Part shown: in pieces, positions 7,276 through 54,165 of the stretch
How positions within the stretch are numbered: the first letter of the stretch is position 1
Layout of the letters: every line of letters starts with the position of its first letter
DNA from: a virus
Reading direction: 5' to 3' (one strand)
Virus genome (UHGV): UHGV-1366919
DNA: 64,000 nucleotides
Made by a program: the position numbers and the translations under genes
Notes under the pieces: model-generated
Told to the model about the DNA's origin: nothing
What the model saw: the letters and a program-made list of their open reading frames with translations, nothing else
Database searches by the model: none

Positions 7276-7875
7276 TTACAGAATTTTATTGATGAAAGAA
7301 TCAGGATGAATCAAAGTATTAGTAACACTCATAATCAATAATTCTTTAAAAGTACTATTGATAATAGTATAAAGATATTCATCCATAGAATGAGCATTAT
7401 CAACAATAATCAAATCATAGGTTTGTCCTCTTAGAGCAAATTCTGCAGAGTTCATTGATTTAAACCTAATAAGAGAATTATTACCGAAATAAAATTCAGA
7501 TTTATTGTAATCACGAACACAACCTATAATTTCATTGTTAAGTTCATTTAATGTATCAAGAGCAATACCCAATTCATTAATCATTAAATCAGCCATTTTC
7601 CTATTCTCGGTAATGAATAAAATTCTGGAATTTGGATTATAATAAGCCTGGGCAAGAGCAAGGGCGATACAAGTTACTGATTTATTAGACTTTCGATTAT
7701 CAGAAGATAATAATAATTTTAAACGTTTTTTATTAGACCGCTTAAGAACTTCCATAGTGAATAAAGAAGATTCAAATGGAATTGCCCGTTCTTTAGAATT
7801 AATCACAAAAATTTCATTTTCATTTAAGGCATCTTCTAAAGCTTTGATGATATTTTCATTATTAAACATATACAA
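7276..7875 (-). CDS. TerL-ATPase-domain-like paralog with degenerate Walker motifs. Candidate pseudo-ATPase or decayed duplicate.
   Basis: Aligns with the TerL ATPase domain. LLLSSDNRKSNKS matches LLISSRQWGKTT. YNPNSRILFITEN matches FHPDQTVCIVANK. NNSLIRFKSMNSAEFALRGQTYDLIIVDNA matches NGSRILTSATSPDAIRGLAIDVLLLDEFA. The P-loop glycine is lost and Walker B DE has become DN. The start is TTG at 7875 or ATG at 7869. It is separated from terL by an in-frame stop. Confidence 0.6.
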   Translation of the reverse strand: MYMFNNENIIKALEDALNENEIFVINSKERAIPFESSLFTMEVLKRSNKKRLKLLLSSDNRKSNKSVTCIALALAQAYYNPNSRILFITENRKMADLMINELGIALDTLNELNNEIIGCVRDYNKSEFYFGNNSLIRFKSMNSAEFALRGQTYDLIIVDNAHSMDEYLYTIINSTFKELLIMSVTNTLIHPDSFINKIL

Positions 7876-7923
7876 TTAATTAAAGCCCTGGAACTGATTT
7901 AATTCCTTTAAATATTAAACATA

Positions 7924-9486
7924 ATGATGAAAAGCTCTAATATTGGAGATATAGCTGAAGAAATTTTCGCTGAAAGTTATGGTACAGTTGGTAATTTAGT
8001 ACCCGAAGAACCAATTACTAAGAAAATTCCTTGTCCTGAAAAGACTAAAAATAAAGTAAAAATTCCGCCTCGTTTCAAAGGTTCTCCTTTCGATTCTTCT
8101 GTTGAAAAGGATTACTATAAAAATGAAACAAATTGTTTTGATGAAGACGAAGAAGACTTTGAAACAGACGATCAGGAAATTCAAGATATTATTCTTCAGC
8201 AATATGAAGGTATTGGTCCTAGGACTAATGGAATGGCATTATCTGATATTCTCGGTTATTTCTCCGTTTCTGATGGAGTTTATCCTAAGAATGAAGTCAT
8301 GCGGGTTCTGCAAGATATGATTAATAAAAATATTCTTGAAATTGATCCTATCACCAAAAAGATCTTTAAATCTTTAGAAGAAGATGAAGAGGATGAATTT
8401 ATTACTCCTGAAGAAATTACTGATGAAGAAAAAGGAAATGATTTAATTGATTCTGTTATCGATTATTTTGAACAATCTACTTCCGGTTCTATAGGAGGTA
8501 TTAATCTTTCTCAAATCTTAAAGGACGTAACTTCTAATACCGGCGCTTCCCGAGCTGAAGTAGTTCAGGCTATCAAAGACCTGCTTCAAAGTAATATTCT
8601 TAAAAAGGGTGTTACTGAAGGTACCATCATTTTAAATTCTACTTCCAAAACAGATGAAGTAGAAGAAGATGCAGAAGGACCTATTCCAGTTATTAATCAA
8701 GAAACCCCCGAAACGCTTCGAGCTAAAGGCTGGACAGAAACAGCACCTGGTATTTTTGTTGGCCCTGACGGCGTTCAAAAATATGCTTTAACTGGAGAAT
8801 CATATAATACTAAGCTAAATAAACATATGAGTAATTTTAACGATGATAATTTCAGCAAGTTATGCGAAGAATTTGAAAAAGAATTCGATAATGTGGATGT
8901 GAGTCTTGACGATTCTACTGAAGGCCTTGATGAATTTGCTGATGAAACTGAAGTATCTGATGAAGAAGGCGAAACTGTGACCATGGAAATTCCTCGTCAC
9001 CTGGTTGATGCTATTACAGAACTTGCAGCTATTTTTAGTGGTTCTGAAGATGAACCTGTCGATGATCTCGCTACCGATGAAGAAGCTACGATCGACCTTA
9101 TGGACGGAGACGGCGATGAAGCCGAAGTTTCTGTTGAAGAAACTGATGAAGATGAAGAAGGTTGCGAAGATGATGAAGAATTCAACTTTGACGAAGACGA
9201 AGAAACCATTGCTGATACGGCTGGTTCTATCTTTGATGCTTCTTTTGGACCTAATGAAGGCGGAGCTTCTGTAACCAAGGCTTCTACTACTCTTCCGGAA
9301 AAACGCCGTAAGCCGATTGAAGGAGCTTATAAGCCCAATGCCGGCGGACAAGCTTATGATGCTTCTACCCGCAATGGCGGTGCTTCTGTGACTAAGGCTA
9401 CTCCTGCTTTTGATAAGTCTGGAAAGCCAGTTGCTTCTAAGGTAAGTCAGAAAGCCAAATCTAAGAATTCTATTTTTGATTTGTAA
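7924..9486 (+). CDS. hyper-acidic 520-aa protein with two winged-helix-like repeats and a basic C-terminal GGASVTKA repeat region
   Basis: There are long D/E runs (EEDEEDFETDDQE; EETDEDEEGCEDDEEFNFDEDEE). A roughly 50-aa module is repeated (G.ALSDIL...EV..VLQDMI.KNIL / G.NLSQIL...EV.QAIKDLLQSNIL). The C-terminus carries GGASVTKAST.. twice. Confidence 0.7.
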   Translation: MMKSSNIGDIAEEIFAESYGTVGNLVPEEPITKKIPCPEKTKNKVKIPPRFKGSPFDSSVEKDYYKNETNCFDEDEEDFETDDQEIQDIILQQYEGIGPRTNGMALSDILGYFSVSDGVYPKNEVMRVLQDMINKNILEIDPITKKIFKSLEEDEEDEFITPEEITDEEKGNDLIDSVIDYFEQSTSGSIGGINLSQILKDVTSNTGASRAEVVQAIKDLLQSNILKKGVTEGTIILNSTSKTDEVEEDAEGPIPVINQETPETLRAKGWTETAPGIFVGPDGVQKYALTGESYNTKLNKHMSNFNDDNFSKLCEEFEKEFDNVDVSLDDSTEGLDEFADETEVSDEEGETVTMEIPRHLVDAITELAAIFSGSEDEPVDDLATDEEATIDLMDGDGDEAEVSVEETDEDEEGCEDDEEFNFDEDEETIADTAGSIFDASFGPNEGGASVTKASTTLPEKRRKPIEGAYKPNAGGQAYDASTRNGGASVTKATPAFDKSGKPVASKVSQKAKSKNSIFDL

Positions 9487-9597: not shown

Positions 9598-10206
9598 TTA
9601 ATTAATCCATCTAATTATTGGTTCATTTTTTATCTCCTTTTGCCACACATACATACAATAAGCAGCCGCACCACTATTTTTAAAATTATCGGTTCCTTTA
9701 CCGCAACCTTGCCTGTTTACATATACATATACATATTTTGGTGGATATTTTTTAAAAAAATTATAACGTTTGGCTGATTCAAGAAAGGTGAGTTTCATAA
9801 ACATAATGACCAAACCATTATTTTTAACAGTTTTTATTGCTTTTTCTGTAATTTCAACTGCATATCTGTAAGGAGGATTTGTAAAAATACAATCAAATTG
9901 ATTATCCCATTTATTAGTTTTTAAAAAATCAATACCAGTTTCTTCCCCATATCCTCTGTCAATTAAATCAGAAGAATAAACTGAATATCCATTTTCTTTT
10001 AATATTTTGGATATCGAACCTATACCACAGCATGGTTCTAAAATATTATTAGGAATTATTAAATTAGTATTTTTAGCTGCTTTTAAAAATAATTTTATTG
10101 ATTCAGGATGAGTACAATAAAAATCATATTCTTCTACTTCAATCTCCTTTTTTCGATGATTTACTGAATAAAATCCTGAATTTCCGCCTGTCCAATCTTT
10201 AATCAT
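9598..10206 (-). CDS. SAM-dependent DNA methyltransferase (N6-adenine or N4-cytosine type), small phage-type orphan MTase
   Basis: Motif I is EPCCGIGSISKIL, and motif IV (FTNPPY) lies about 45 aa downstream. This I-then-IV order with a short C-terminal region is gamma-like. Confidence 0.75.
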   Translation of the reverse strand: MIKDWTGGNSGFYSVNHRKKEIEVEEYDFYCTHPESIKLFLKAAKNTNLIIPNNILEPCCGIGSISKILKENGYSVYSSDLIDRGYGEETGIDFLKTNKWDNQFDCIFTNPPYRYAVEITEKAIKTVKNNGLVIMFMKLTFLESAKRYNFFKKYPPKYVYVYVNRQGCGKGTDNFKNSGAAAYCMYVWQKEIKNEPIIRWIN

Positions 10207-11505: not shown

Positions 11506-11542
11506 AAAAAAGCTGAATCAAATTAATGATTCAGCTTTTTTA
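11506..11542. terminator. Bidirectional palindromic terminator, family member (aaaaaagctgaatca-aattaa-tgattcagctttttt)
   Basis: Perfect palindrome with A-run and T-run flanks. It sits between convergent genes. Confidence 0.6.
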
Positions 11543-12618
11543 ATCTCTTCTTGAATTAAAAGTTTTATTTGATCTTTATTTTTCTTCCATTTACTTTCCC
11601 AAATTTCTATCAATGTAATTCCCCTTTCAATACATTGATTTCTTTTATTTTCATGATAACCCAGATTTCGATCTTCGTGTAATTTATGCCAGTAATCTCC
11701 ATTATATTCAAAGGCTAATTTTAATTCGGGGAGATAAATATCAAGCTCTAATTGATTATCAAGTTGATTTCTAGAATTTTTTATAATTTTTCTTGAATAT
11801 ATCGAATTAATATATTCAAAAAGTTCTTTTTCACCTTTAGATCTTTTCGAAGCTTTTACACATTTAATACAGCCACTTCCATTTAAATGAATATATGCTC
11901 TTTGTCGAAAGACACCATGCCTTGGACAAATAATATTCACATAATCACGAGCACTTTTATAGATAACTAAGGAATAATTATATTTGTCTCCATGAACTTC
12001 TTGAGCTCTTTTAATAAATTCTTCAGTTGTTAAAAATTGCTTTTCTCTTTTACATTCTGGACATTCATTGCCTTGTAAATGTGACCCTGCATGTTGTCGA
12101 AATAATCCATGCTTAGGACATATTATTGTTATATGATTTTTTACGCCATTATAAATCACTTTAGAATAATCATAATAATTTCCATGCACTTTTTTAGCTT
12201 TTTCAATAAATTCTTCTCTTGATAAAAGATCTTTTATTTTAGCACAATAAGGACACCCACTTCCATTTAAATGGCTGCCAGCCATTTGTTCAAATTTATG
12301 CCCGCATTTATTACAAATAATCCAAATTTTTGATTTACAATTTACGTATATCGATATTGAATAATTATACTTATCACCATGAACTTTTCTTGCTTTTTCT
12401 ATAAATTTTTCTGTTGTTAACTGTGCCGTGGGAATACATTTAGGACATCCACATCCTCTTAAATGTTCTGATGCTTTTTGCCAAAAATATCCATGCTCAG
12501 GACAACCAATTTCTATTTTTGCAAGACTACTTTTATATTCAACTCTTGAATAATCATATTTGTCACCATGTATTTCTTTAGCCCTTTGTATAAATTCTTC
12601 AGTTGTTAGCTTTTTCAT
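11518..12618 (-). CDS. Homing-endonuclease-like protein, paralog 2. Four tandem Zn-ribbon modules plus a C-terminal PD-(D/E)xK/Vsr-like nuclease.
   Basis: The module (F)I.KA..VHGDKY(D/N)YS...Y......I(I)C..HG.F.Q....HL.G.GCP.C occurs four times. The C-terminus carries ELDIYLPELKLAFEYNGDYWH. Confidence 0.65.
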   Translation of the reverse strand: MKKLTTEEFIQRAKEIHGDKYDYSRVEYKSSLAKIEIGCPEHGYFWQKASEHLRGCGCPKCIPTAQLTTEKFIEKARKVHGDKYNYSISIYVNCKSKIWIICNKCGHKFEQMAGSHLNGSGCPYCAKIKDLLSREEFIEKAKKVHGNYYDYSKVIYNGVKNHITIICPKHGLFRQHAGSHLQGNECPECKREKQFLTTEEFIKRAQEVHGDKYNYSLVIYKSARDYVNIICPRHGVFRQRAYIHLNGSGCIKCVKASKRSKGEKELFEYINSIYSRKIIKNSRNQLDNQLELDIYLPELKLAFEYNGDYWHKLHEDRNLGYHENKRNQCIERGITLIEIWESKWKKNKDQIKLLIQEEIKKAESLI

Positions 12619-16320: not shown

Positions 16321-17714
16321 TTAGCACCAAAATAAAATCAGGATAAAATAATATCCAATTTATGGCAATTAAACGACTTACGACAGAAATTTTTATAGAA
16401 AGGGCCAAAGCAAAACACGGTATAGACAGGTATGATTACTCGGCAACCAATTATACCCATTGTAATAATAAAATTATAATCAAGTGTTTAATACATAATT
16501 TAATATTTGAAACCTACCCCCATAATCATTTAAGAGGGAATGGAGGTTGCCCTCTATGTGCTAAAGAAGGACGATCTTTATCATGGCAATCTTTTTTAGA
16601 AAAAAGCATCGAAGCTCACGGGCAAAATCGATATGATTATTCATATGCTAAAAAAGAGTATAAAGGAACCAAATCAAAAATTACAATAATATGTAAAAAA
16701 TGTGGACATAGATTTGTTCAATTACCTTCTAATCATATAAAAGGCCATGGTTGTATAAATTGTGTAAATTTAGCTAAATCATTTGATAAAAATTTCTTTA
16801 TTAAAGAGGCAGAAAAGAAACATGGTATTGGGAGATATGATTACTCAAAAATAAAATATAAAAATTCATATACTCCCATTTATATTATTTGTAATAAATG
16901 TAATAAAAAATTTTATCAGCAGCCACGAATACATTTAAAAGGAATTGGATGTTCTCATTGTTATTATAAAAGTAAAACATTAACTAAGGAAGAATTTATT
17001 AAAAGAGCTGAAGAAATACATGAAAAAGGAAAATATGATTATTCTAATGTAGAATATATACAGTCTAACATTAAGATTAAAATTAAATGTAATAAATGTA
17101 ATAATATTTTTTGGCAATATCCCCATGAACATTTAAAAGCCAAAGGATGCCGAATTTGTGCAATTAAAGATATTACTGATACAAAAGAAACATTTATTAA
17201 AAAGGCAAAGAAAGTTCATAAGGATTTTTATGATTATTCAAGTATAAAATATATAAATTCTCAAACTTTAATTTATATTAATTGTCCAAAACATGGTTTT
17301 TTCGCACAACGGCCAAATGCTCATCTAAGAGGTCATGGATGTCCGAATTGTGCACTCGCTGCACAAAGATCTCGAGGAGAAATAGAACTTGGAGAATTTA
17401 TTAAATCAATTTATTCCAATAAAATTTTAAAAAATTCTAAAACACAACTTGGAAATAAAATGGAATTGGATATATATCTTCCTGAATTAAAACTCGCCAT
17501 TGAGTATAATGGCGATTATTGGCATAATTTGAAAGAGGCCAAACATCCTGGCTGCCATGAAGATAAAAGAAACCGATGTAAAGAAAGAGGAATTAAACTT
17601 ATTGAAGTTTTAGATACGGAATGGCAAAAGAATAAAGATCAAATTAAAGAATCTCTTAAAAAACAAATTGGAGAACTTATCAAAATTAGCACCAAAATAA
17701 AATCAGGATAAAAT
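16321..17714 (+). mobile_element. Homing-endonuclease gene cassette bounded by 29-30 bp direct repeats (ttagcaccaaaataaaatcaggataaaat)
   Basis: The repeat at 16321..16350 and the one at 17686..17714 are identical over 29 nt. The second copy encodes the last residues (ISTKIKSG*) of the enclosed ORF. Confidence 0.55.
16362..17711 (+). CDS. Homing-endonuclease-like protein, paralog 3. Six tandem Zn-ribbon modules plus a C-terminal PD-(D/E)xK/Vsr-like nuclease.
   Basis: Repeated ..HG..RYDYS...Y......I.C..H..F......HL.G.GC..C modules. The C-terminus carries MELDIYLPELKLAIEYNGDYWH. Confidence 0.65.
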   Translation: MAIKRLTTEIFIERAKAKHGIDRYDYSATNYTHCNNKIIIKCLIHNLIFETYPHNHLRGNGGCPLCAKEGRSLSWQSFLEKSIEAHGQNRYDYSYAKKEYKGTKSKITIICKKCGHRFVQLPSNHIKGHGCINCVNLAKSFDKNFFIKEAEKKHGIGRYDYSKIKYKNSYTPIYIICNKCNKKFYQQPRIHLKGIGCSHCYYKSKTLTKEEFIKRAEEIHEKGKYDYSNVEYIQSNIKIKIKCNKCNNIFWQYPHEHLKAKGCRICAIKDITDTKETFIKKAKKVHKDFYDYSSIKYINSQTLIYINCPKHGFFAQRPNAHLRGHGCPNCALAAQRSRGEIELGEFIKSIYSNKILKNSKTQLGNKMELDIYLPELKLAIEYNGDYWHNLKEAKHPGCHEDKRNRCKERGIKLIEVLDTEWQKNKDQIKESLKKQIGELIKISTKIKSG

Positions 17715-19243: not shown

Positions 19244-19369
19244 AAATATGATTAGTAAGAAATTACCACCTCTTTGGAAGCAACAACTCGTCTGGTGCTT
19301 ATGTAAACTATTGAATATAAATTTTCGAATTTATCCAAATCGGCCCAAAGATGAAAAAGTTGATTAATA

Positions 19370-19405
19370 AAAAAGCTGAGTCATTAATTTGACTCAGCTT
19401 TTTCT
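19370..19405. terminator. Bidirectional palindromic terminator, family member (aaaaagctgagtca-ttaatt-tgactcagcttttt)
   Basis: Perfect palindrome between the convergent genes at 17780..19243 (+) and 19431..19997 (-). Confidence 0.6.
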
Positions 19406-44070: not shown

Positions 44071-46484
44071 TGACTAAAAAATATTATTCTACTAATGAAT
44101 ATTTTCTAATTGATCCGATTACAAAAGAACAAATACCTTATGAAGGCTATGTTCTTGTAGAAAATAATATTCCTTATACATTCGATGATAAAAAAGAATT
44201 AGTCATAGGTAATAATTATACAACAAAGATTAATTTATCTAATGATTTCTTTGATAGATTGTTAGATGTTGATCTTAAATTGCCTTATAATTTAGCTGAT
44301 TGTACTTTTGCAGCTAACGATTTCCTTAAAGCATCTGTTATTAATAAAATTATTAATAATTTAGAAGCAAATAACACCTATATCTTTAAAAATTGTCTTA
44401 TTGCTCAAAATGACTTGCCTTTAAGCGAAAAAATCCCAGTTTTATCTCCCCATAGACCATTTGCTTCTGAAGATAAAACTGAATTTGGCCCGGTAGACGG
44501 ATGGTTTTATTCCAACATATCTTATAGTACTCCCCAAAATATTTGGAATAAATTAGATTGGCCTGATACTGTTGAGGGTTATAATTGGGGAACTGAAGAT
44601 ATTATTAATAGTATTGTTGTTCCAACTAATAAATTTACTGATAAGAAAGATGCCGACGGAAACCCAATGAAACTATATGCTGTTTTTATTGGAAGATCTA
44701 CTTCTATTCAGCTGATGAACCTTTACTTATTTCCTTATGATGAATTACAGCAAAGTTCAGATCCTTTATTAAATGAAGGAGACCATGCTGAAGAATTAAA
44801 TCAACGAATGTTTGAAGAAATCTCTTCAATTAATAATCAAAATATTAGTGGTTCTAATGTCAATAATTTGAATATCTTTACATTTTCTAAAATTGATCCA
44901 AATAACATTGACTCAGCTTCATTTAAAAATATTTCTGGAATAGCTTTAGATGGAAATTACTTGTATGTAATTGATAATCAGTTAAATGGTCTTTTTAAAT
45001 ATGATATTTCCAAATGTTTATCTGATCGAGGAGCTGCAACAAATAGAATAATGCTTGTTGACCAAATTCAAGGCTTTGGAGATTTAAATCAGCCTTATCG
45101 ATTTAATAATCCACAATCTATTGCGGCATTTGATAATACAATCACTGTCTTCGATAAAGGAAATAATGTAATCAAAGTTCTCGATAACTTCTTCAACCAT
45201 AAATTTACCATTCGTTCAGGCGGATTTATTCGTCAAAATACAAGAACAGTGTCAATTTGCCCTTATGAATTTATTCTTAATGAAGAAACTATAGAAAAAG
45301 GTTCAATTTGGGTAATTACTGAAGCTGCAGATAAAATTATTATTAATATTTTCTCTAATAAAGGAGAATACTTGGGTGATTATCAAGTTCTTTATCTTGA
45401 ACTACTTAAAACTTACTGGTATAATCCTGAAGATGGACAACCTTCTTCAGATGAGCCAATCTATAATCAAGAAATCGTTAAAAAAATTGATTTCTCATAT
45501 AATAATTCAAATTATTTCTATATTGTTACTAATAAACGAATTGTTAAATTTCAGCTGTCTAAATTAACTTATCCGATTGGAATTATTTCTTATTATTACC
45601 GTTCAATTACTCTTGACGATTTAGTTTGGGAAAATGTTTACATGCCCTGGGAAAATGTTCAAGACTTAGGGAATAATTTAATTCCTTGGGATTATGATCG
45701 TTCTACAGAATTATCCGCTTATCCTCAAAATGTTTGTTTTTCCATAACAGGAACTCCTGAATTAAATGAAGATGTTATTTTTAATATCATTGATAATAGA
45801 AGTTATTATGGACAAGGAAAGTTGCAAAGAGTAGATAATTACACAGACAATAAACTTCTTTATTATGATAAGAATAGAGACTATACCTACCTTAAAATAA
45901 ATCTGGATGGCAGGGTTAACCCACCAGTTTTAGTGAATACAGGTGATATTGTAGATGAATACCGTCCTTCTGCTCAAAATACCCCGGAAAAAGTTGAAGG
46001 TAAAACATTTGTTATTAAAGAAGAGGAAGTTATTTCTAAGCTCCATAAGAATGTTATCCTTTTCTTTAAAGAACCGAATATTTTAAAGTCTTCTTTATTA
46101 AAATCTGATATTAATGTTTATTCTGAAGAAGAATTAAGCTTTAAAGATAATCAAGAATACTATAATGTCCTTACATTTAATAAAATTCTTTATAAACTTT
46201 TCTTTAACTTATCAGAAATTAAGAAATATATCTTCGGAACATTTGTTGGAGGTTATAGTATTGACGGGTTGATGACTTATGACCATGTTAAGCCTGATTC
46301 ATCTTTTCAGGAATTAGGTTCTGATAAAGAAAATTTCTTCATGGGAGAGAATGAGTTAACATCAATTATCCTTAATAGATGCTTTACCTCAATCTATAAT
46401 ACTCAAGTAAATATCATCAAGAAAATGCAGACTAGTTTTATTAGTACGCTTAACTATAACATTAATTCTTACCGAATCATCTAA
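44070..46484 (+). CDS. tail protein with NHL-repeat-like beta-propeller segments
   Basis: IALDGNYLYVIDNQLNGLFKYD and IAAFDNTITVFDKGNNVIKVLD resemble NHL repeats. Confidence 0.5.
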   Translation: MTKKYYSTNEYFLIDPITKEQIPYEGYVLVENNIPYTFDDKKELVIGNNYTTKINLSNDFFDRLLDVDLKLPYNLADCTFAANDFLKASVINKIINNLEANNTYIFKNCLIAQNDLPLSEKIPVLSPHRPFASEDKTEFGPVDGWFYSNISYSTPQNIWNKLDWPDTVEGYNWGTEDIINSIVVPTNKFTDKKDADGNPMKLYAVFIGRSTSIQLMNLYLFPYDELQQSSDPLLNEGDHAEELNQRMFEEISSINNQNISGSNVNNLNIFTFSKIDPNNIDSASFKNISGIALDGNYLYVIDNQLNGLFKYDISKCLSDRGAATNRIMLVDQIQGFGDLNQPYRFNNPQSIAAFDNTITVFDKGNNVIKVLDNFFNHKFTIRSGGFIRQNTRTVSICPYEFILNEETIEKGSIWVITEAADKIIINIFSNKGEYLGDYQVLYLELLKTYWYNPEDGQPSSDEPIYNQEIVKKIDFSYNNSNYFYIVTNKRIVKFQLSKLTYPIGIISYYYRSITLDDLVWENVYMPWENVQDLGNNLIPWDYDRSTELSAYPQNVCFSITGTPELNEDVIFNIIDNRSYYGQGKLQRVDNYTDNKLLYYDKNRDYTYLKINLDGRVNPPVLVNTGDIVDEYRPSAQNTPEKVEGKTFVIKEEEVISKLHKNVILFFKEPNILKSSLLKSDINVYSEEELSFKDNQEYYNVLTFNKILYKLFFNLSEIKKYIFGTFVGGYSIDGLMTYDHVKPDSSFQELGSDKENFFMGENELTSIILNRCFTSIYNTQVNIIKKMQTSFISTLNYNINSYRII

Positions 46485-48124
46485 TGGCTCAACAATTTTC
46501 ATCTCTTATTAAATTTCGTCGTGGTTTAAAAGAACAGCGATTAAAAACTTCTTTCCAAGAAGGCGAACCTGTTTATGAAACAGATACAAAACGTTTATTC
46601 ATTGGAGTAGGAGATAATAATGAAGCTTCTGTTGGTCCTGAAACAGTCGGTGGTATTATTACATCTAATTTAACTTTTATTGGGCCTGCTTCCAGTGATC
46701 CTTCTCCTGATACTGAGCCGCGGTCTTATTCCGGAGACTTAATGTATGCCAATAATAAGCTTTGGAGAATGGGAGACTCTAATTGGGAAGATATTTCTCC
46801 TAAAGTAGATGGGATTACTTTAGCATATAATGCAAATAATGAACTTCAGGTTCTTTCCGGAGCATTTTCTGTTACTGCCGGGAATGGTATCTCTATTACC
46901 TCGGGAAATACTGTCAATATTAAGAATTCTCCTCAAAATATTCTTCAAATTGTTAATGGTGAATTAACAATTCCTCAAGGAAGTATAACTGCTGATTATT
47001 TTTCTACTGAAACTTTTAGTTCTGACTATTTCACAATTATTGGATCTCTTATCCAAATTAATTTAGATCCTAATTATTTTTCTACGACTGGAAATATTAA
47101 AATTACTAAAGTTCCAGCTGGTGAAAAGAATGATACATTAACAACTGTTGATAATAAACAAGTCGGTACTGTAAATGCTGTCATTACCAATCGTTTAGGA
47201 GAAAGTTCCGGCGGTATTACTCTTGATTCTAATTTAAATCTTCAAATTGATCCTCAAGTAACAGTCATTAATGATGAAACTAATCAAATCACAGGGTTAA
47301 AACCTGGTATTGGTGATGTTTTAGCAGTGAATGATTCCACCTCTAAAGCCTATAATGGATCTATCTCTGATTATTTTGATGAAGATATTAAATGGACTGG
47401 TCATGAAAGAACTGAAATAAGTCTTTTTGAAGAAGACCGGTTAAATGCACCCAATCCGATGACCGTTTTTTCTGGCGGCATGATTTTAATGGATATGGGA
47501 ACTACAAAAACCGGAAAAGGATATAAGCGGTATGCCGTCCCGGTTTTTGAATTACCGGAACCACCTGAAATTTATCATATTGAATTGGGAAGTGGCAATA
47601 CTCCAGGAAGTATTATCGGTGATAACCTTGGAGGAATTCGAGTATGGACCATAGAATCAAATACCAAGCCCGTAGAAAATATAGTAGCAGGCAGTAGTAT
47701 TGATTTACTGCATGGGACAAATAGGTTAGAATTAACTTCACCTATTTCTATTCCTCCAGATGGACAAGTTATTGCTAAAAATTATATTGGTACACTTAAT
47801 TTAGCGGATTATACCGCCAATAATCCAATTATTCGCCAGGTAACTTATGAAGGCTCAGGAACTCCTGTCACCAGTATTTCAATTGATATATTCAATGTTA
47901 ATTCTACTAAAGCCAATTTTACAAAGGTAGAATATGCTTTAGTTTCAGCTCCTGAAACAAATATTAATATTCCAACATTTGATGTACAAGAGAATTCAGA
48001 ATATCCTGGAATTAATAGTTTTGTTAATGTATCAACTTGGCCTTCCGGAGCTCCTAACTGGGAAGATATTTCTTCTGTTACTGTAACTTACAGTGGAACA
48101 GTTATCAAATATACTATTCGCTAA
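46484..48124 (+). CDS. tail fibre protein
   Basis: The N-terminus KFRRGLKEQRLKTSFQEGEPVYETDTKRLFIGVGD matches the widespread tail-fibre N-terminal motif (RRG...GE..YETDT.....G.G). Confidence 0.6.
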   Translation: MAQQFSSLIKFRRGLKEQRLKTSFQEGEPVYETDTKRLFIGVGDNNEASVGPETVGGIITSNLTFIGPASSDPSPDTEPRSYSGDLMYANNKLWRMGDSNWEDISPKVDGITLAYNANNELQVLSGAFSVTAGNGISITSGNTVNIKNSPQNILQIVNGELTIPQGSITADYFSTETFSSDYFTIIGSLIQINLDPNYFSTTGNIKITKVPAGEKNDTLTTVDNKQVGTVNAVITNRLGESSGGITLDSNLNLQIDPQVTVINDETNQITGLKPGIGDVLAVNDSTSKAYNGSISDYFDEDIKWTGHERTEISLFEEDRLNAPNPMTVFSGGMILMDMGTTKTGKGYKRYAVPVFELPEPPEIYHIELGSGNTPGSIIGDNLGGIRVWTIESNTKPVENIVAGSSIDLLHGTNRLELTSPISIPPDGQVIAKNYIGTLNLADYTANNPIIRQVTYEGSGTPVTSISIDIFNVNSTKANFTKVEYALVSAPETNINIPTFDVQENSEYPGINSFVNVSTWPSGAPNWEDISSVTVTYSGTVIKYTIR

Positions 48125-48984
48125 TGTATAATCCCCTAAAATTACAATCCCCGGTAATTTTACCTCCGGAATCGATAAGTCAAAATTGGATTTCTAAAGA
48201 AAATTTTGACTTAAAGGAAAACCTTACATTTTCATTTAAACTTAAATCTAGTAATACTTCAGATAAAGAATTGGGATTTTCTATTTTTCTTGTTAATTCT
48301 TCTAATACCGAATCTTTTGGAGCCAGCACAATTAGGTCTGGCTTGACCGATTATTCTACAAAAGGAGAAATTGGAGAAGGATTTAATAAAAATAATGAAA
48401 AATTATCCTTAAGATATAATAATATTCAATATGATTTTCTTTTGGACCATGTTTATCCTTATTCAATAAATGGTTTGGCTTCTAATCAAAAACCATTTAA
48501 TACAGAAGGATTTCAAAATAATAATATTTTTAGTATTTTATTTGATTCCACCAAAAAATTTTATAAAAACCAGCTTGATTTTTATAAAAATGTTTATTTT
48601 GATGAGGTACAGGTTAAAGATATTGTTACGGATCAAATTGTAGATCCTTCTACTTATAATTGTCCTATCTTTATTCAAGCTCTGCAAGATTTATATATAG
48701 CCGAGTTTAAAACAGATCAAAATTTTGATATACTAAATTTAAATTCTGTAACAATTCGATTTTCTTTTGAAAATTATGGTAAATTGTTCAGAATGGATGT
48801 TCTTGAAGCTAATGGTATAGAATATAAAAATGTATGTTTAAAATATTTTGACCTTAATATGAGGCAATATCGTAATCTTAAGCTCGGATATGGAATTGCA
48901 AGTCCAATAATGACTTATAATACTGAAAATATTGCTGATTTTACTATTGATACTTTCCATATCCAAGGTAAATTGAGAGAGTAA
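48124..48984 (+). CDS. hypothetical tail-fibre-associated protein
   Basis: 286-aa ORF, last gene of the plus-strand block. Confidence 0.5.
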   Translation: MYNPLKLQSPVILPPESISQNWISKENFDLKENLTFSFKLKSSNTSDKELGFSIFLVNSSNTESFGASTIRSGLTDYSTKGEIGEGFNKNNEKLSLRYNNIQYDFLLDHVYPYSINGLASNQKPFNTEGFQNNNIFSILFDSTKKFYKNQLDFYKNVYFDEVQVKDIVTDQIVDPSTYNCPIFIQALQDLYIAEFKTDQNFDILNLNSVTIRFSFENYGKLFRMDVLEANGIEYKNVCLKYFDLNMRQYRNLKLGYGIASPIMTYNTENIADFTIDTFHIQGKLRE

Positions 48985-48985
48985 A

Positions 48986-49026
48986 GGTACATATACTATT
49001 CCTGCTCATACTCCTCTTGATATAGA
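48986..49026. repeat. 41-bp perfect inverted repeat copy A. It is a pseudo-fragment of the 49338..51521 fibre gene (it would encode GTYTIPAHTPLDIE, then DH-stop).
   Basis: Identical to the reverse complement of 49645..49685. Degenerate similarity continues for about 27 more nt. Confidence 0.8.
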
Positions 49027-49304
49027 GGACCATTAGACTAATCCATACAATAGTAAACTTATAATTGATAGAATGTCGGGGACTTTTTTCTGTTTCATCT
49101 ATCAAGCTAATCCTAAAGCAATCGGATGTTTTCAACTTGTTAATACTTTTAACGAAACAGGCCATAAAAGATATAACGAAGCATTACAGTATGCAACCTA
49201 TAAATTAAACTTTAGTGGCTAAATAAATCAAAGTAATATGACTCCATGAGAAACTAGATCTTATTGCATATCTCTTTCTTATTTGATTAAAATAACTTTA
49301 AATT

Positions 49305-49340
49305 TAAAAAAGCGGTGAGAACGTTCTCACCGCTTTTTTA
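49305..49340. terminator. Hairpin terminator (gcggtgagaacg-ttctcaccgc) flanked by A- and T-runs
   Basis: It lies between the convergent plus-strand block and the minus-strand fibre gene. Confidence 0.6.
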
Positions 49341-51521
49341 TTTAATTTTAATAAGATAGGTTAAAGATATGTTATAAGGTCTAGTTTCTTTGGGGGCAAT
49401 AGGTCCTATTAGGTTACTTAGGTTTAATTCATATTGAACATTAGCAAAAGCCCAATGGTTATCTCTATGTTGTGATAAAAAGTTCGCTTCACTTAGATAA
49501 GTTTGAGAAAAAGCACCAGTTCCACCGACATATAATGGATAACGCTGTCCCCAATTTTGAGAACGAACACAAGTTTTAAAAGTACTTTTGGTTCCTCCTT
49601 CTCCTGAAAGGGAACTTAAGACATATGGATTAGTTTGAGGATCTTCTATATCAAGAGGAGTATGAGCAGGAATAGTATATGTACCTTCACTTGTAATAGT
49701 AGAAGATGTAGTGGAAGCACCTCGAATAAATCTATTTCTTAAGTCTGGCAAATTAAATTGTCCGCCTCCCCCAATTACTGTTAAATGTGAAGTAACTGGA
49801 TGAGCCGTAGTATTAAAAGTAATTATAGCTAATCCTTGGCTTAATCGTAAAAATGGAATTCGCCATGGATTAGAATCAAACTCTAACCACCACTTAGACG
49901 GTACATGGATGTTATAATATCCATCATTTTGAATAGTATAAGTATTTTGCTCATTAATGGTAGCTAACAGTGTACTATTTGTATAGATAGTAACAGGCAA
50001 TGGTGTTCTTATGCCGTTCAATACAATACCAAGGCCTTGAGCAGTAATTACTGTTCCCTTCTTCAAATATAAAGACGGTTCATAATCATAAGCAGATTCG
50101 CCGCTTCTATTAATATTAAAGGGGGCAATATTTGTTGTTAATATTCCTTCAAGAACCAATGGTATATCGTTATAAGGCAAACTAGTTCCATCCAATACAA
50201 GGTAAAAATGCCTTTTAACACCTTCATTATCTGGATTCCAAGATTGCCAAACATCTAAATTAATTGATGTAATAGTATTAAAATTAAAAGTATATTGACC
50301 GCTTACAAATTGAGCTGTGTTAGTAACTTCTTCCGGACAATATAAAATATAATTAGCATAGCCTTCAGAAAGTTCTACATATGTCCTAGCATTAGAACTA
50401 TATTTGGCATCTATAGTACATTCCATTTCAGGAACTGTTACATTTATTTTTGGTAATTGCTGAAATGTATTATTACCAGTAGCGGGAATCCATAAACAAT
50501 AAATTCCATCCTCGGGAATAATATAAGATCTGTTATCAACAGTAGAAATTAAAGGGCTACCGTCAACTCCAAAAGTTGATAAATTTAATTTTTCTTTATT
50601 ATAGATATAAGCTTCGGATGCCCCGGCATTTCCAGCTAAAGTATATCGGGCTCCCTGAATTTGAACAACTGTGTTAGCGGGCAAATAGGCATATTCTGCG
50701 TGGGCAGCCTGATTTGGACTTTGCTCATAATTAATAGTTCTACCAGTTTGCCGCCAACTAATTTTTACAGATGGATTTTCAAATGTATCAGTAGTATTAA
50801 ATTCAATATTACTAAATTGGAGTTCATTTTTAACTAGTTCAAAATCTAAATCTCCTTGAGCCTGTAAAGAATTTATTTCTAATTTGGTCAAAGTAGTAAT
50901 ATTATTTTCATGAAATAAAGATGCTGCAATAATAGGAAGGCTTAGCCTTAATCTTTTATAAGATAATCTACTTGTACCGACTACCATTCGGTACAAATCA
51001 GGGAAATTATCAAAATTATATTCTTGCCCAGTTAATGAATGCCGATTTTGGCCATCGGCAAAATCATAATAATCCCTGAATCGCTGAGGAAGCAAATTAA
51101 GATCTTTTTGGGCAATTGCAACCGGAATAACAGTGCCCACTGGAACAGTTTGCTCCATAATTTGATTATCGGTAACAAACTGTTTAATAATTTCAATTAA
51201 ATCCTGATGCTCATAATTTCCGGCATTATCACCGATGAGAATATTATTTTTAGCCGGAGCAACAGTAGGAACATTAGTTTGAGTACCAAATGTAATCTTA
51301 TCTCTTAATTGAGTTTGGCTGACAATTTCTTTTTGAACTTCAATATGTTCAGTACCAATAGACAATGCAGAATTATTACCCATTGAATCAGCAACAGGAA
51401 CGGGTGTTAATCCAATACCAGTATCTGAACCGTCATCGGCCGGAGAAACACGTAAAATTCCTCGGAAAGATTTTGAAATTGGCTTTTTTGCTACGTCTCT
51501 ATTGTTTTGTTCTGTTGCCAT
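49338..51521 (-). CDS. tail fibre protein with a Collar domain (T4 gp12-like receptor-binding region)
   Basis: NLPDLRNRFIRGAS matches the Collar-domain LPDLRGRF motif. Confidence 0.8.
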   Translation of the reverse strand: MATEQNNRDVAKKPISKSFRGILRVSPADDGSDTGIGLTPVPVADSMGNNSALSIGTEHIEVQKEIVSQTQLRDKITFGTQTNVPTVAPAKNNILIGDNAGNYEHQDLIEIIKQFVTDNQIMEQTVPVGTVIPVAIAQKDLNLLPQRFRDYYDFADGQNRHSLTGQEYNFDNFPDLYRMVVGTSRLSYKRLRLSLPIIAASLFHENNITTLTKLEINSLQAQGDLDFELVKNELQFSNIEFNTTDTFENPSVKISWRQTGRTINYEQSPNQAAHAEYAYLPANTVVQIQGARYTLAGNAGASEAYIYNKEKLNLSTFGVDGSPLISTVDNRSYIIPEDGIYCLWIPATGNNTFQQLPKINVTVPEMECTIDAKYSSNARTYVELSEGYANYILYCPEEVTNTAQFVSGQYTFNFNTITSINLDVWQSWNPDNEGVKRHFYLVLDGTSLPYNDIPLVLEGILTTNIAPFNINRSGESAYDYEPSLYLKKGTVITAQGLGIVLNGIRTPLPVTIYTNSTLLATINEQNTYTIQNDGYYNIHVPSKWWLEFDSNPWRIPFLRLSQGLAIITFNTTAHPVTSHLTVIGGGGQFNLPDLRNRFIRGASTTSSTITSEGTYTIPAHTPLDIEDPQTNPYVLSSLSGEGGTKSTFKTCVRSQNWGQRYPLYVGGTGAFSQTYLSEANFLSQHRDNHWAFANVQYELNLSNLIGPIAPKETRPYNISLTYLIKIK
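49645..49685. repeat. 41-bp perfect inverted repeat copy B, inside the fibre gene (encodes SEGTYTIPAHTPLDIED)
   Basis: Reverse complement of 48986..49026. Confidence 0.8.
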
Positions 51522-51623
51522 GTTATAAAGCTTTCTTGTTTGAATATTTATTGAGATCCTCTACTGATTTAAATTTAAAATTAAATTCTAAATTAATCTT
51601 TAAAAATTAATATTAGAATAAAA

Positions 51624-51658
51624 GAAAAGACTCTGGAAATTTATCCAGAGTCTTTTAA
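51624..51658 (-). terminator. Hairpin terminator (aagactctgga-aattt-atccagagtctt) after the gene at 51667..52014
   Basis: Perfect stem, with a T-run on the minus strand. Confidence 0.5.
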
Positions 51659-51666
51659 AAATCATT

Positions 51667-52014
51667 TTAGAAATTATTTTCAAGAATTAAATCTTGTAAT
51701 CCTGCAAAATATCTCTCATCAATATATTTTTTAATAGCTTTATGCGGTTTAGCTTTCTTAACGATATTATCAACTGTAAATTCCATATCTCGTTCATAAT
51801 ATTCGTCGCAAATTAAATTAATCGCTTCAATTAATAAAGCCCATCTTGTCAATAAAGGAAGAGTCATCTGAGTTCCGTCGTTAAATGTTACAACTTGTTT
51901 CTCTCTGGCCTCTAATTCTGCACCGGTCAATTTCTTATTTTTCATCTGAGTTAAACTTTTTAGTTGTTTTATATTTCTCAGATAATAAATCATACATATT
52001 ATGTTCATCAACAA
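51667..52014 (-). CDS. hypothetical protein
   Basis: The full ORF overlaps the upstream gene by 80 nt. The true start is probably the internal ATG near 51945. Confidence 0.45.
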   Translation of the reverse strand: MLMNIICMIYYLRNIKQLKSLTQMKNKKLTGAELEAREKQVVTFNDGTQMTLPLLTRWALLIEAINLICDEYYERDMEFTVDNIVKKAKPHKAIKKYIDERYFAGLQDLILENNF

Positions 52015-53661: not shown

Positions 53662-53882
53662 TGCAAACACCGATTAAAGTTTCAAATATTAAATCAAGTG
53701 ATCTTTTGACTGAATCTTTATATGATATTAAAGATCAAGAATTTACTTTAGTAGAAAATAAAGATAATCCAATGTCTTTAGCCGTTAAAAAAGATTTAAT
53801 CAAAATTGTTTTGGAAGATATTCTAAAAATGCCGATTAAATCTTTCAGTGTAAAGAAAATGAAAAAAGCTGAGTCAAACTAA
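53646..53882 (+). CDS. hypothetical small protein
   Basis: 78-aa ORF ending inside the terminator palindrome. Confidence 0.35.
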   Translation: MEASLMQTPIKVSNIKSSDLLTESLYDIKDQEFTLVENKDNPMSLAVKKDLIKIVLEDILKMPIKSFSVKKMKKAESN

Positions 53883-53897
53883 TGACTCAGCTTTTTA
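53864..53897. terminator. Bidirectional palindromic terminator, family member (aaaaagctgagtca-aactaa-tgactcagcttttt)
   Basis: Palindrome between the convergent genes at 53646..53882 (+) and 54166..55245 (-). Confidence 0.6.
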
Positions 53898-54165
53898 ATT
53901 TCAAATTTTAACTAGGTTTGACTTTAAATTATATCTATGGTGAAACTACAAAAGCCAAGATAATAAAGTTAAAGTCAAACTTAGCCGATAATTCATCCTC
54001 AGAAAAAGATCTTAAGAAGGAATTAAAGAAACGAAAGTTAATTTAGTTCTATAAAGGATAACGGAAATCCAAATTAATAATTTAAATTACTTTCACTTTT
54101 TATTTACCAAATTTCCTGAAAATGAAGAGGTGATCTATTGTATGATTAACCAAGTATATAGTTTA

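Follow-up and report, generated by a model that had tools for sequence, protein, structure and literature searches.

A 64,000-nucleotide (nt) stretch of the virus genome UHGV-1366919, called the window throughout, carries at positions 48980-49691 what we regard, with a probability of roughly 0.8, as a locked and decaying allele of an invertible switch for the tip of a tail fibre. Comparison with related genomes indicates that the species has a working fibre-tip switch similar to the G segment of phage Mu, and that the window holds a relic of it. A preliminary description of the window had proposed the layout of a Mu G or P1 C segment, with a constant part, an inverted repeat and a variable part, and sister genomes with both orientations bear this out. 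It had left the choice between a decayed switch and a scar of receptor-binding-domain exchange; the former stands, and a one-off scar is contradicted by silent cassettes that are intact in 20 of 22 loci and by repeated flips.

In the arrangement that we propose, the fibre gene would run from a constant part through a 69-bp arm (encoding SEGTYTIPAH.PL.IEDPQTNPY) into a cassette of ~80 codons with a 16-residue closing strand, and a second cassette would lie head-on behind a shared palindromic terminator, ending at an inverted copy of the arm. Recombination between the arms would flip a segment of ~0.7 kb and splice the other cassette onto the fibre, and the phage population would alternate between two tips, A and B. 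In the window haplotype the spare cassette, B', would have been inactivated stepwise, leaving a dead switch with drifting arms.

Both tips occur among close relatives

Thirty-eight loci of the species were gathered, 22 of which (window included) hold both arms; all counts of orientation and cassette integrity refer to these 22. The loci are taken as strains of one ~200-kb phage species because their flanks are 93-100% identical. An alignment of the window fibre with 11 homologues resolves two C-terminal types, which diverge directly after the arm-encoded ...PQTNPY. Type A tips start VLSSLSGEG... and belong to proteins of 726-731 amino acids (aa); type B tips start NSKLIIDGMSGTFFCSIYQANP... in proteins of 712-719 aa, and the two types share the ending ETRPYNI(S/A)L.YLIK.K. 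The attached tip is A, or a divergent allele A', in 17 loci and B in the other five (L007, L011, L015, L016, L032). In all 22, the unattached cassette is silent, inverted and in the same place, and it is intact with its own stop codon everywhere except in the window and L014. Sister genomes have the same two arms, ~666 nt apart. Among 120 listed clusters of fibre proteins, 79 carry tip A, 36 tip B and five tip A'. The comparison of fibre C-termini among relatives, a check put forward in the preliminary description, therefore yields two alternative tips, found in both orientations.

Once reverse-complemented, the B-attached segments are collinear with the A-attached ones. Over 429 variable columns, the five B-attached segments show 1, 1, 4, 5 and 10 differences to the nearest A-attached segment (L007-L004, 1; L015-L010, 1; L016-L024, 4; L011-L005, 10). 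The B-attached lineages are 11-42 differences apart; L007 and L032, separated by 4, were counted as one lineage. Since B-attached segments are nearest to A-attached ones, at least four independent in-place inversions are indicated. Switching of the segment by foreign import is contradicted by these sequences, which point to inversion in place. Pairs of opposite orientation differ at few of the 1857 nt of the fibre constant part (4 for L005/L015, 4 for L016/L023, 7 for L011 and the window), and contig comparison places both orientations on the same genetic background among the relatives.

Intact cassettes are under purifying selection, the ratio of the proportions of nonsynonymous and synonymous differences (pN/pS) being 0.06 for A (8 alleles) and 0.21 for B (13 alleles, mostly in the silent position). 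This low value for a mostly silent cassette argues that the silent cassette is expressed often enough for selection to act on it. The same observations bear on the idea that there is no switch, and that the window copy is the 3' end of a foreign fibre left as a one-off scar by a single receptor-binding-domain exchange. Taken alone, that copy does look like such a scar: it is a pseudogene, it lacks a start codon, and no invertase is encoded close by. The silent cassette is, however, full length, sits at the same site in every locus, is nearly always intact and is under purifying selection, the B tip is attached in 36 of the 120 clusters, and several independent flips are evident; we consider a scar very improbable.

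A further explanation would make the two orientations assembly artefacts, with the segment placed at random between 69-nt repeats. The maximum k of SPAdes is usually 55, below 69, which leaves the arms unspanned by k-mers, and the ends of two contigs fall at the arms and those of nine at the palindrome. Yet B-attached contigs also come from MEGAHIT assemblies (L032, L015) in which k, at 141 and 99, exceeds the length of the arm, and an artefact is unlikely for that reason. B-type fibres moreover occur in 36 clusters and many samples, one cluster being found on 20 contigs, and the orientation agrees in three samples of one study. We give random placement hardly any credence. The ending of contigs at the arms was also considered as a sign of mixed orientation and was rejected, the SPAdes k being smaller than the 69-nt repeat.

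Over the constant part of the fibre (window 49700-50900, residues ~200-610), loci L004-L032 fall into three allelic groups, with 77-92% nucleotide identity between groups and mostly 97-100% within them, in flanks that are 93-100% identical. Tip B is found on groups 1 and 2 and in none of 25 group-3 clusters.

A probable locked allele in the window

The 41-bp perfect inverted repeat of the preliminary description is confirmed. The window contains exactly two copies of the 41-mer GGTACATATACTATTCCTGCTCATACTCCTCTTGATATAGA, one per strand (left copy +, right copy -), with 0 mismatches; no further copy was found in the 64-kb window at <=3 mismatches, and 0 of 100 dinucleotide-preserving shuffles gave a match. 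A repeat finder extended it to 68 nt of 91% complementarity with 576 nt between the arms (Table 1), by far the longest local inverted repeat of the window. The outer arm is 69 nt long in relatives; the window arms have 6 mismatches to each other, leaving 41 perfect nt of the 69. One of the changes, G to A at 48983, preserves the stop codon of the adjoining 286-aa gene (TGA to TAA) and turns E into K in the cassette frame.

The left copy does read ...LDIEDH and then stops, as had been said (SKGTYTIPAHTPLDIEDH, then TAG). The similarity does not end after a further ~27 nt, nor is the alternative arm truncated, as the preliminary description had it: once translated, the left copy can be followed over ~106 codons as far as 49297, the conserved C-terminal strand included, and is thus a full-length cassette, but a pseudogene (psiB'). 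Its + strand translation from 48980 is SKGTYTIPAHTPLDIEDH, stop, TNPYNSKLIIDRMSGTFFCFIYQANPKAIGCFQLVNTFNETGHKRYNEALQYATYKLNFSG, stop, INQSNMTP, stop, ETRSYCISLSYLIKIT. The three in-frame stops (TAG 49034-49036, TAA 49220-49222, TGA 49247-49249) occupy positions that are Q, Q and R in intact alleles. Against residues 612-715 of the B-type fibre P0060, psiB' aligns without gaps at 72% identity (E=7e-53).

Expressed and silent cassettes are convergent, tail to tail around the palindromic terminator, and the conserved last 16 codons of both form an inner inverted repeat (49249-49302 / 49336-49389; 54 nt, 76%). The sequence of the palindrome fits a bidirectional hairpin, similar to an intrinsic terminator, that would serve both the fibre gene and the + strand tail operon converging on it. 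Apart from this terminator the segment holds two ~100-codon cassettes, which are themselves the only open reading frames (ORFs) called inside it; no fibre-assembly (chaperone) gene pair of the U/U' type was found within the segment. Nine independent contigs (L002, L003, L018-L021, L028, L037, L038) end in or at the end of the 36-38-nt palindrome. Such breaks are expected for Logan contigs (k=31) and not for MEGAHIT contigs of k119/k141, where a drop in coverage at the hairpin or a heterogeneous central piece are possible causes.

The haplotype shared by the window and L014 differs at 80-100 of the 429 columns from all others, and at 13 between the two. Its tip A' (WGQRYPLY...FLSQHRDNHWAFANV...) is paired with the B'-derived pseudogene and is set apart from A by a one-codon indel (WGQRYP versus YGGGA). 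A' is present on all three allelic groups of the constant part (5/120 clusters), which argues that the haplotype moves by recombination. Between psiB' and intact B alleles, pS is 0.37-0.46 and pN/pS ~0.3; estimated substitution rates give dS ~0.5-0.7 and dN/dS ~0.2-0.25. From the high synonymous distance and this pN/pS, it follows that psiB' evolved for the most part, and until recently, as a divergent allele that was functional. A repaired version of the B' cassette, used to look for fibres that carry B' intact, matched seven short ORFs and no full-length fibre, and did not reveal a functional ancestor of psiB'.

The stops are nested among strains. ORFs P0122 and P0123 (...FSGQINQSNMTP) have TGA only, L014 has TAA and TGA, and the window has TAG, TAA and TGA, a series suggesting that B' acquired TGA first, then TAA, then TAG. 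The L014 silent cassette retains an intact ...DPQTNPY, and psiB' of the window has extra missense changes (E to K, G to R, S to F). Because three stops kill the spare cassette, the switch would be locked on A'. The inversion product predicted from the window sequence is a fibre cut after residue 627 plus H (...LDIEDH), without head and closing strand, and the two products of the switch are accordingly not both intact.

Some gut phages reassign TAG or TGA, and readthrough or recoding of the in-frame stops would keep the window's silent cassette usable. All three of TAG, TAA and TGA occur in the cassette, however, arriving stepwise among strains, and ordinary genes of the phage end in stops (TAA for the 286-aa ORF and the fibre, TGA for the 286-aa ORF in relatives). 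Recoding was rejected on the ground that all three stops serve as real terminators, and we see next to no chance of it.

Table 1. Coordinates of the fibre-tip switch and adjoining genes in the window
Feature	Position	Strand	Remarks
286-aa gene, function unknown	48124-48984	+	last gene of the + strand tail/baseplate operon; outside the invertible segment
Distal arm of outer repeat	48980-49047		perfect core 48986-49026; begins at the stop codon of the 286-aa gene
Silent alternative C-terminal cassette psiB'	48980-49297	+	inverted relative to the fibre gene; pseudogenised
Inner-repeat arm of silent cassette	49249-49302		conserved closing strand ETRSYCISLSYLIKIT
Palindrome, perfect 18+18 nt	49305-49340		flanked by A and T runs; fibre stop codon 49338-49340 inside
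Tail-fibre gene, 727 aa	49338-51521	-	constant part, residues 1-610
Closing strand of expressed cassette	49341-49388	-	residues 712-727, ETRPYNISLTYLIKIK; one arm of the inner repeat
Expressed variable cassette A'	49389-49622	-	fibre residues 634-711; divergent type-A allele, also in L014/P0096
Fibre-side arm of outer repeat	49624-49691		perfect core 49645-49685; encodes S611-Y633, ...SEGTYTIPAHTPLDIEDPQTNPY

How the segment may flip

We see about an even chance that flipping is carried out by the homologous recombination system of the phage (UvsX-like recombinase, gp32, Rad50-like nuclease) acting on the 69-bp arms, with no dedicated invertase. A RecA_N (UvsX-like) protein, a Rad50-like ATPase and a family-B DNA polymerase are encoded within 10 kb beyond the window, and gp32 lies in the window. 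Pfam scans of window ORFs >=90 aa revealed no serine or tyrosine recombinase domain, and precomputed Pfam annotation revealed none in the genes 10 kb beyond each window end, 84 kb of the ~200-kb genome being covered in all. The preliminary description had noted the lack of an invertase in the window, and for ORFs of this size the observation holds; as a sign of decay it may not, the relatives with intact switches showing none in 84 kb either. The wider search that it had advocated has covered 10 kb on each side, with no invertase found.

The arms themselves are informative. Within each of nine genomes they are identical, yet they vary between genomes at synonymous and non-synonymous sites, a pattern of concerted evolution that resembles the outcome of gene conversion and general homologous recombination. 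Elsewhere the arms are mosaic, their polymorphisms being shuffled at several positions. The central piece, made up of the closing strands and the terminator, is also found in both orientations: its 149 nt are 99% identical between L032 and L004 in reverse complement, and the piece of 139-149 nt is reversed in L032 (8150-8300), the window (49249-49389) and L014. Crossovers therefore occur at the inner repeat too. Inversion of this nested piece swaps the last 16 residues and a 15-nt spacer between cassettes, with almost no coding consequence.

The same switch could instead be driven by a dedicated serine or tyrosine invertase, encoded in the remainder of the phage genome or by the host and acting on a core site inside the 69-bp arms. 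To our knowledge, every well-studied phage fibre inversion switch uses a dedicated invertase, a subject reviewed in the introduction to bioRxiv 10.64898/2026.02.14.705889; only 84 of ~200 kb were inspected, and invariant stretches in the arms are a candidate binding site. On the other hand, invertase genes normally abut their segment, and no resolvase or integrase domain is found beside this one or in the 84 kb. Compared by eye with the gix consensus, the arm shares the TTCCTG start only (~12/26), and the AAACC..GGTTT half-site cores are absent. Recombination is not confined to the arms but also affects the inner repeat, which is unrelated to them; polymorphisms in the arms are mixed at several positions instead of being divided at one point; and the phage occurs in no GTDB species genome, consistent with a virulent lifestyle without integrase-type genes. 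We rate an invertase-driven switch as possible, at distinctly less than even odds.

Tip variation by a diversity-generating retroelement was rejected, the arm differences being mixed (A/G, C/T, A/C, T/C) with no adenine bias. Pfam scans of window ORFs >=90 aa detected no reverse transcriptase domain. Retroelements that act on Mtd-type tips likewise vary the receptor-binding tip of a phage, but here there is no reverse transcriptase, and the inverted cassettes are of different sequence rather than a template/variable pair. The 546-aa protein (46484-48124, +) adjoining the 286-aa gene has a sub-threshold match to Mtd_N (24.8 bits; cut-off 26.3), and its L016 variant is 538 aa long; no retroelement components were seen alongside it.

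Several points weigh against a switch of the tip operated by phage recombination. Flipping is deduced from differences between genomes rather than seen within one population, and three samples of one study are all B-attached, so flipping is too slow to scramble every sample. Some of the mosaic arms could stem from recombination between co-infecting strains and not within one genome. The perfect stretch in the inner arms is only ~17-22 nt, short for RecA-type recombination; T4-type phages recombine efficiently on short homologies. A phage invertase in the remaining ~116 kb, or one encoded by the host, may exist. The assignment of the variable cassette as a receptor-binding head rests on a weak similarity to T4 gp12 (E=0.005), and an AlphaFold2 model of the fibre (12-sequence alignment) has a mean predicted local distance difference test (pLDDT) score of 40.4, with residues 563-727 below 50.

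With these points in view, the complete picture is offered tentatively, at a little under even odds: a virulent gut phage of the T4 superfamily would possess a reversible tip switch without a dedicated invertase, its nested coding repeats of 69 bp and ~50 bp being recombined by UvsX/gp32 and its silent cassette being kept by selection through periodic expression, and the window would represent a specialising lineage that is gathering nonsense mutations.

The fibre and its expressed tip

The fibre protein matches PHROG 523, 'tail collar fiber protein' (E=8e-7), and Pfam PF14928 at 18.4 bits (E=0.0027), under the cut-off of 23.8. A fibre profile searched against the PDB gave T4 gp12 (1OCY) at motif level (E=0.005). 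The collar motif NLPDLRNRFIRG (residues 590-601) pairs with LPDMRGLFVRG of gp12 and the terminal strand ETRPYNISLTYLIKIK with ETRPWNISLNYIIKVK, both C-terminal motifs of the gp12 type (the LPD(L/M)RG.F.RG collar and the terminal strand) thus being present. The variable cassette falls between collar and terminal strand, where gp12 has its receptor-binding head, and we infer that the cassette is the receptor-binding head of a gp12-like fibre.

The resemblance to the T4 gp12 short tail fibre (PDB 1OCY, 1PDI) consists of the collar motif (N)LPDLR.RF.RG and the terminal strand ETRP(Y/W)NISL.Y(L/I)IK(I/V)K. T4 gp12 is itself not switchable; the fibre of the gut phage exceeds it by 200 aa, has a shaft that differs and shows no evident HxH zinc-binding motif. 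The domain layout of gp12 reportedly goes back to work by Thomassen et al. in 2003. A second collar-like motif, VTDNQIMEQTVPVGTVIP...FPDLYRMVVG, lies near the fibre N-terminus (window 51100-51180, residues 116-185); like the C-terminal NLPDLRNRFIRG (window 49720-49760, residues 590-603), it resembles parts of the T4 gp12 collar.

The product of the 286-aa gene has no family match in profile searches and no structure match in structure searches. Its synteny is kept in all relatives, and its stop codon sits in the distal arm.

Comparison with known systems

The closest counterparts are the Mu G segment (Gin) and the P1/P7 C segment (Cin), in which a constant N-terminal fibre part is joined through a coding inverted repeat to one of two opposed C-termini, and inversion changes the fibre tip and the predicted host range. 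The present system shares with them an arm at the constant/variable boundary, two opposed cassettes and the occurrence of both orientations in relatives. It differs in other respects. Mu and P1, temperate phages of enterobacteria, flip 3-4 kb including a fibre-assembly gene (U/U') by means of an adjacent serine invertase, 26-bp gix/cix sites and a Fis-dependent enhancer. Here, a ~200-kb T4-superfamily gut phage has a segment of ~0.7 kb without a chaperone, bounded by 69-bp arms with no invertase in 84 kb, and the spare cassette is dead in the window. Neither the adjacent serine invertase of the Din family (Gin/Cin/Pin/Min/Hin; PF00239 plus a helix-turn-helix) nor the chaperone pair of its segments was found.

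Among programmed inversions that alter genes, tail fibres are an enriched class, and recombinases are enriched near predicted inversions (Milman et al., PMC9881135); that study lists its tail-fibre examples with long-read confirmation as prophages within bacterial chromosomes. Intragenic invertons have likewise been identified by comparative genomics (Chanin et al., bioRxiv 10.1101/2023.03.11.532203). Akin to these, the present locus has coding inverted repeats that recombine alternative 3' parts, and both orientations occur among close genomes. Unlike the prophage tail-fibre inversions of PMC9881135, it belongs to a free, apparently virulent phage with no recombinase nearby. In lytic cyanophages, an invertible segment of ~30 kb is bounded by repeats of 400-700 nt, and inversion without a dedicated recombinase has been considered (bioRxiv 10.64898/2026.02.14.705889). 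Those segments too are bounded by inverted repeats and found in both orientations regardless of phylogeny, but no alternative ends are spliced onto a gene.

A precedent within T4-type phages is the exchange of adhesins. Tetart et al. are said to have described, between 1996 and 1998, the swapping of T-even gp37/gp38 adhesins by recombination between conserved motifs. As in our case, short conserved blocks flanking a variable receptor-binding part are the crossover points; the T-even donor is, however, another genome (co-infection) and the exchange is not reversible, whereas here a silent inverted cassette lies in cis and the inversion would be reversible. Literature searches returned nothing equivalent for fibre inversion in T4-like or gut phages, and a 2026 methods paper goes no further than to suggest 'potential viral invertons'.

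The phage and other features of the window

The window derives from a T4-superfamily myovirus. It encodes a T4-type large terminase, tail sheath, T4 baseplate, gp25- and gp53-like proteins, gp32, a clamp-loader-like ATPase, a DnaB-like helicase and a 5'-3' exonuclease, along with a weak match to a T4 neck protein. Its relatives are contigs of 195-205 kb from human-gut metagenomes, and one protein of the window has index entries in 811 blocks of the collection. An exact search of IMG/VR with the 41-mer gave no match, nor did blastn with 46000-52000 and tblastn with the fibre against 50,697 GenBank phages. The terminase is ~33% identical to its best matches (Ackermannviridae/T4-type). Given this low identity and the empty GenBank searches, there is no cultured relative to lend annotation. 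The fibre was found in no GTDB species genome, which therefore provides neither a clue to the host nor a prophage copy.

A number of other features were recorded. ORFs with DUF4379/DUF723 treble-clef zinc fingers (11518-12618, -; 16362-17711, +), one of them with a weak REase_MTES_1575 match, look like mobile nuclease genes. An extra 364-aa zinc-finger copy lies between a 359-aa and a 79-aa gene in L015 (2551-3645) and is absent from that place in the window and other strains. Two 38-nt hairpins resembling terminators (19366-19403 / 53863-53900; AAAAAGCTGAGTCA...TGACTCAGCTTTTT) are 95% identical, 34 kb apart and opposite in orientation. The terminase region is flanked by a small Eco57I-like/N6-methyltransferase-like ORF (9598-10206, -) and a short ResIII helicase-like ORF (7276-7875, -). 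About 2 kb beyond the left end of the window, a Glyco_transf_25 gene (7758-8435) is intact in L033 (225 aa) and split in L034 (149 + 71 aa), a strain whose proteins match the window exactly.

Implications

Inversion of fibre tips is a textbook property of temperate enterobacterial phages such as Mu and P1, and our searches turned up no account of it in virulent phages of the T4 type or in abundant uncultured phages of the gut. Should general recombination indeed drive the inversion, a phage proficient in recombination could acquire a programmed switch from short coding inverted repeats alone. The strains with one, two and three stops form a natural loss-of-function series that shows how such switches die. 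The minimal design may itself be of use: ~80 codons of a gp12-like collar/head domain are exchanged and the closing strand is conserved, which indicates where chimeric fibres could naturally be spliced. Proteins of this phage are indexed in hundreds of assemblies from the human gut, and tips of both types are in circulation (79 A, 36 B and 5 A' clusters). The switch therefore probably influences the range of bacterial surface variants open to attack by the phage, a matter of relevance to phage-host dynamics and to host-range engineering.

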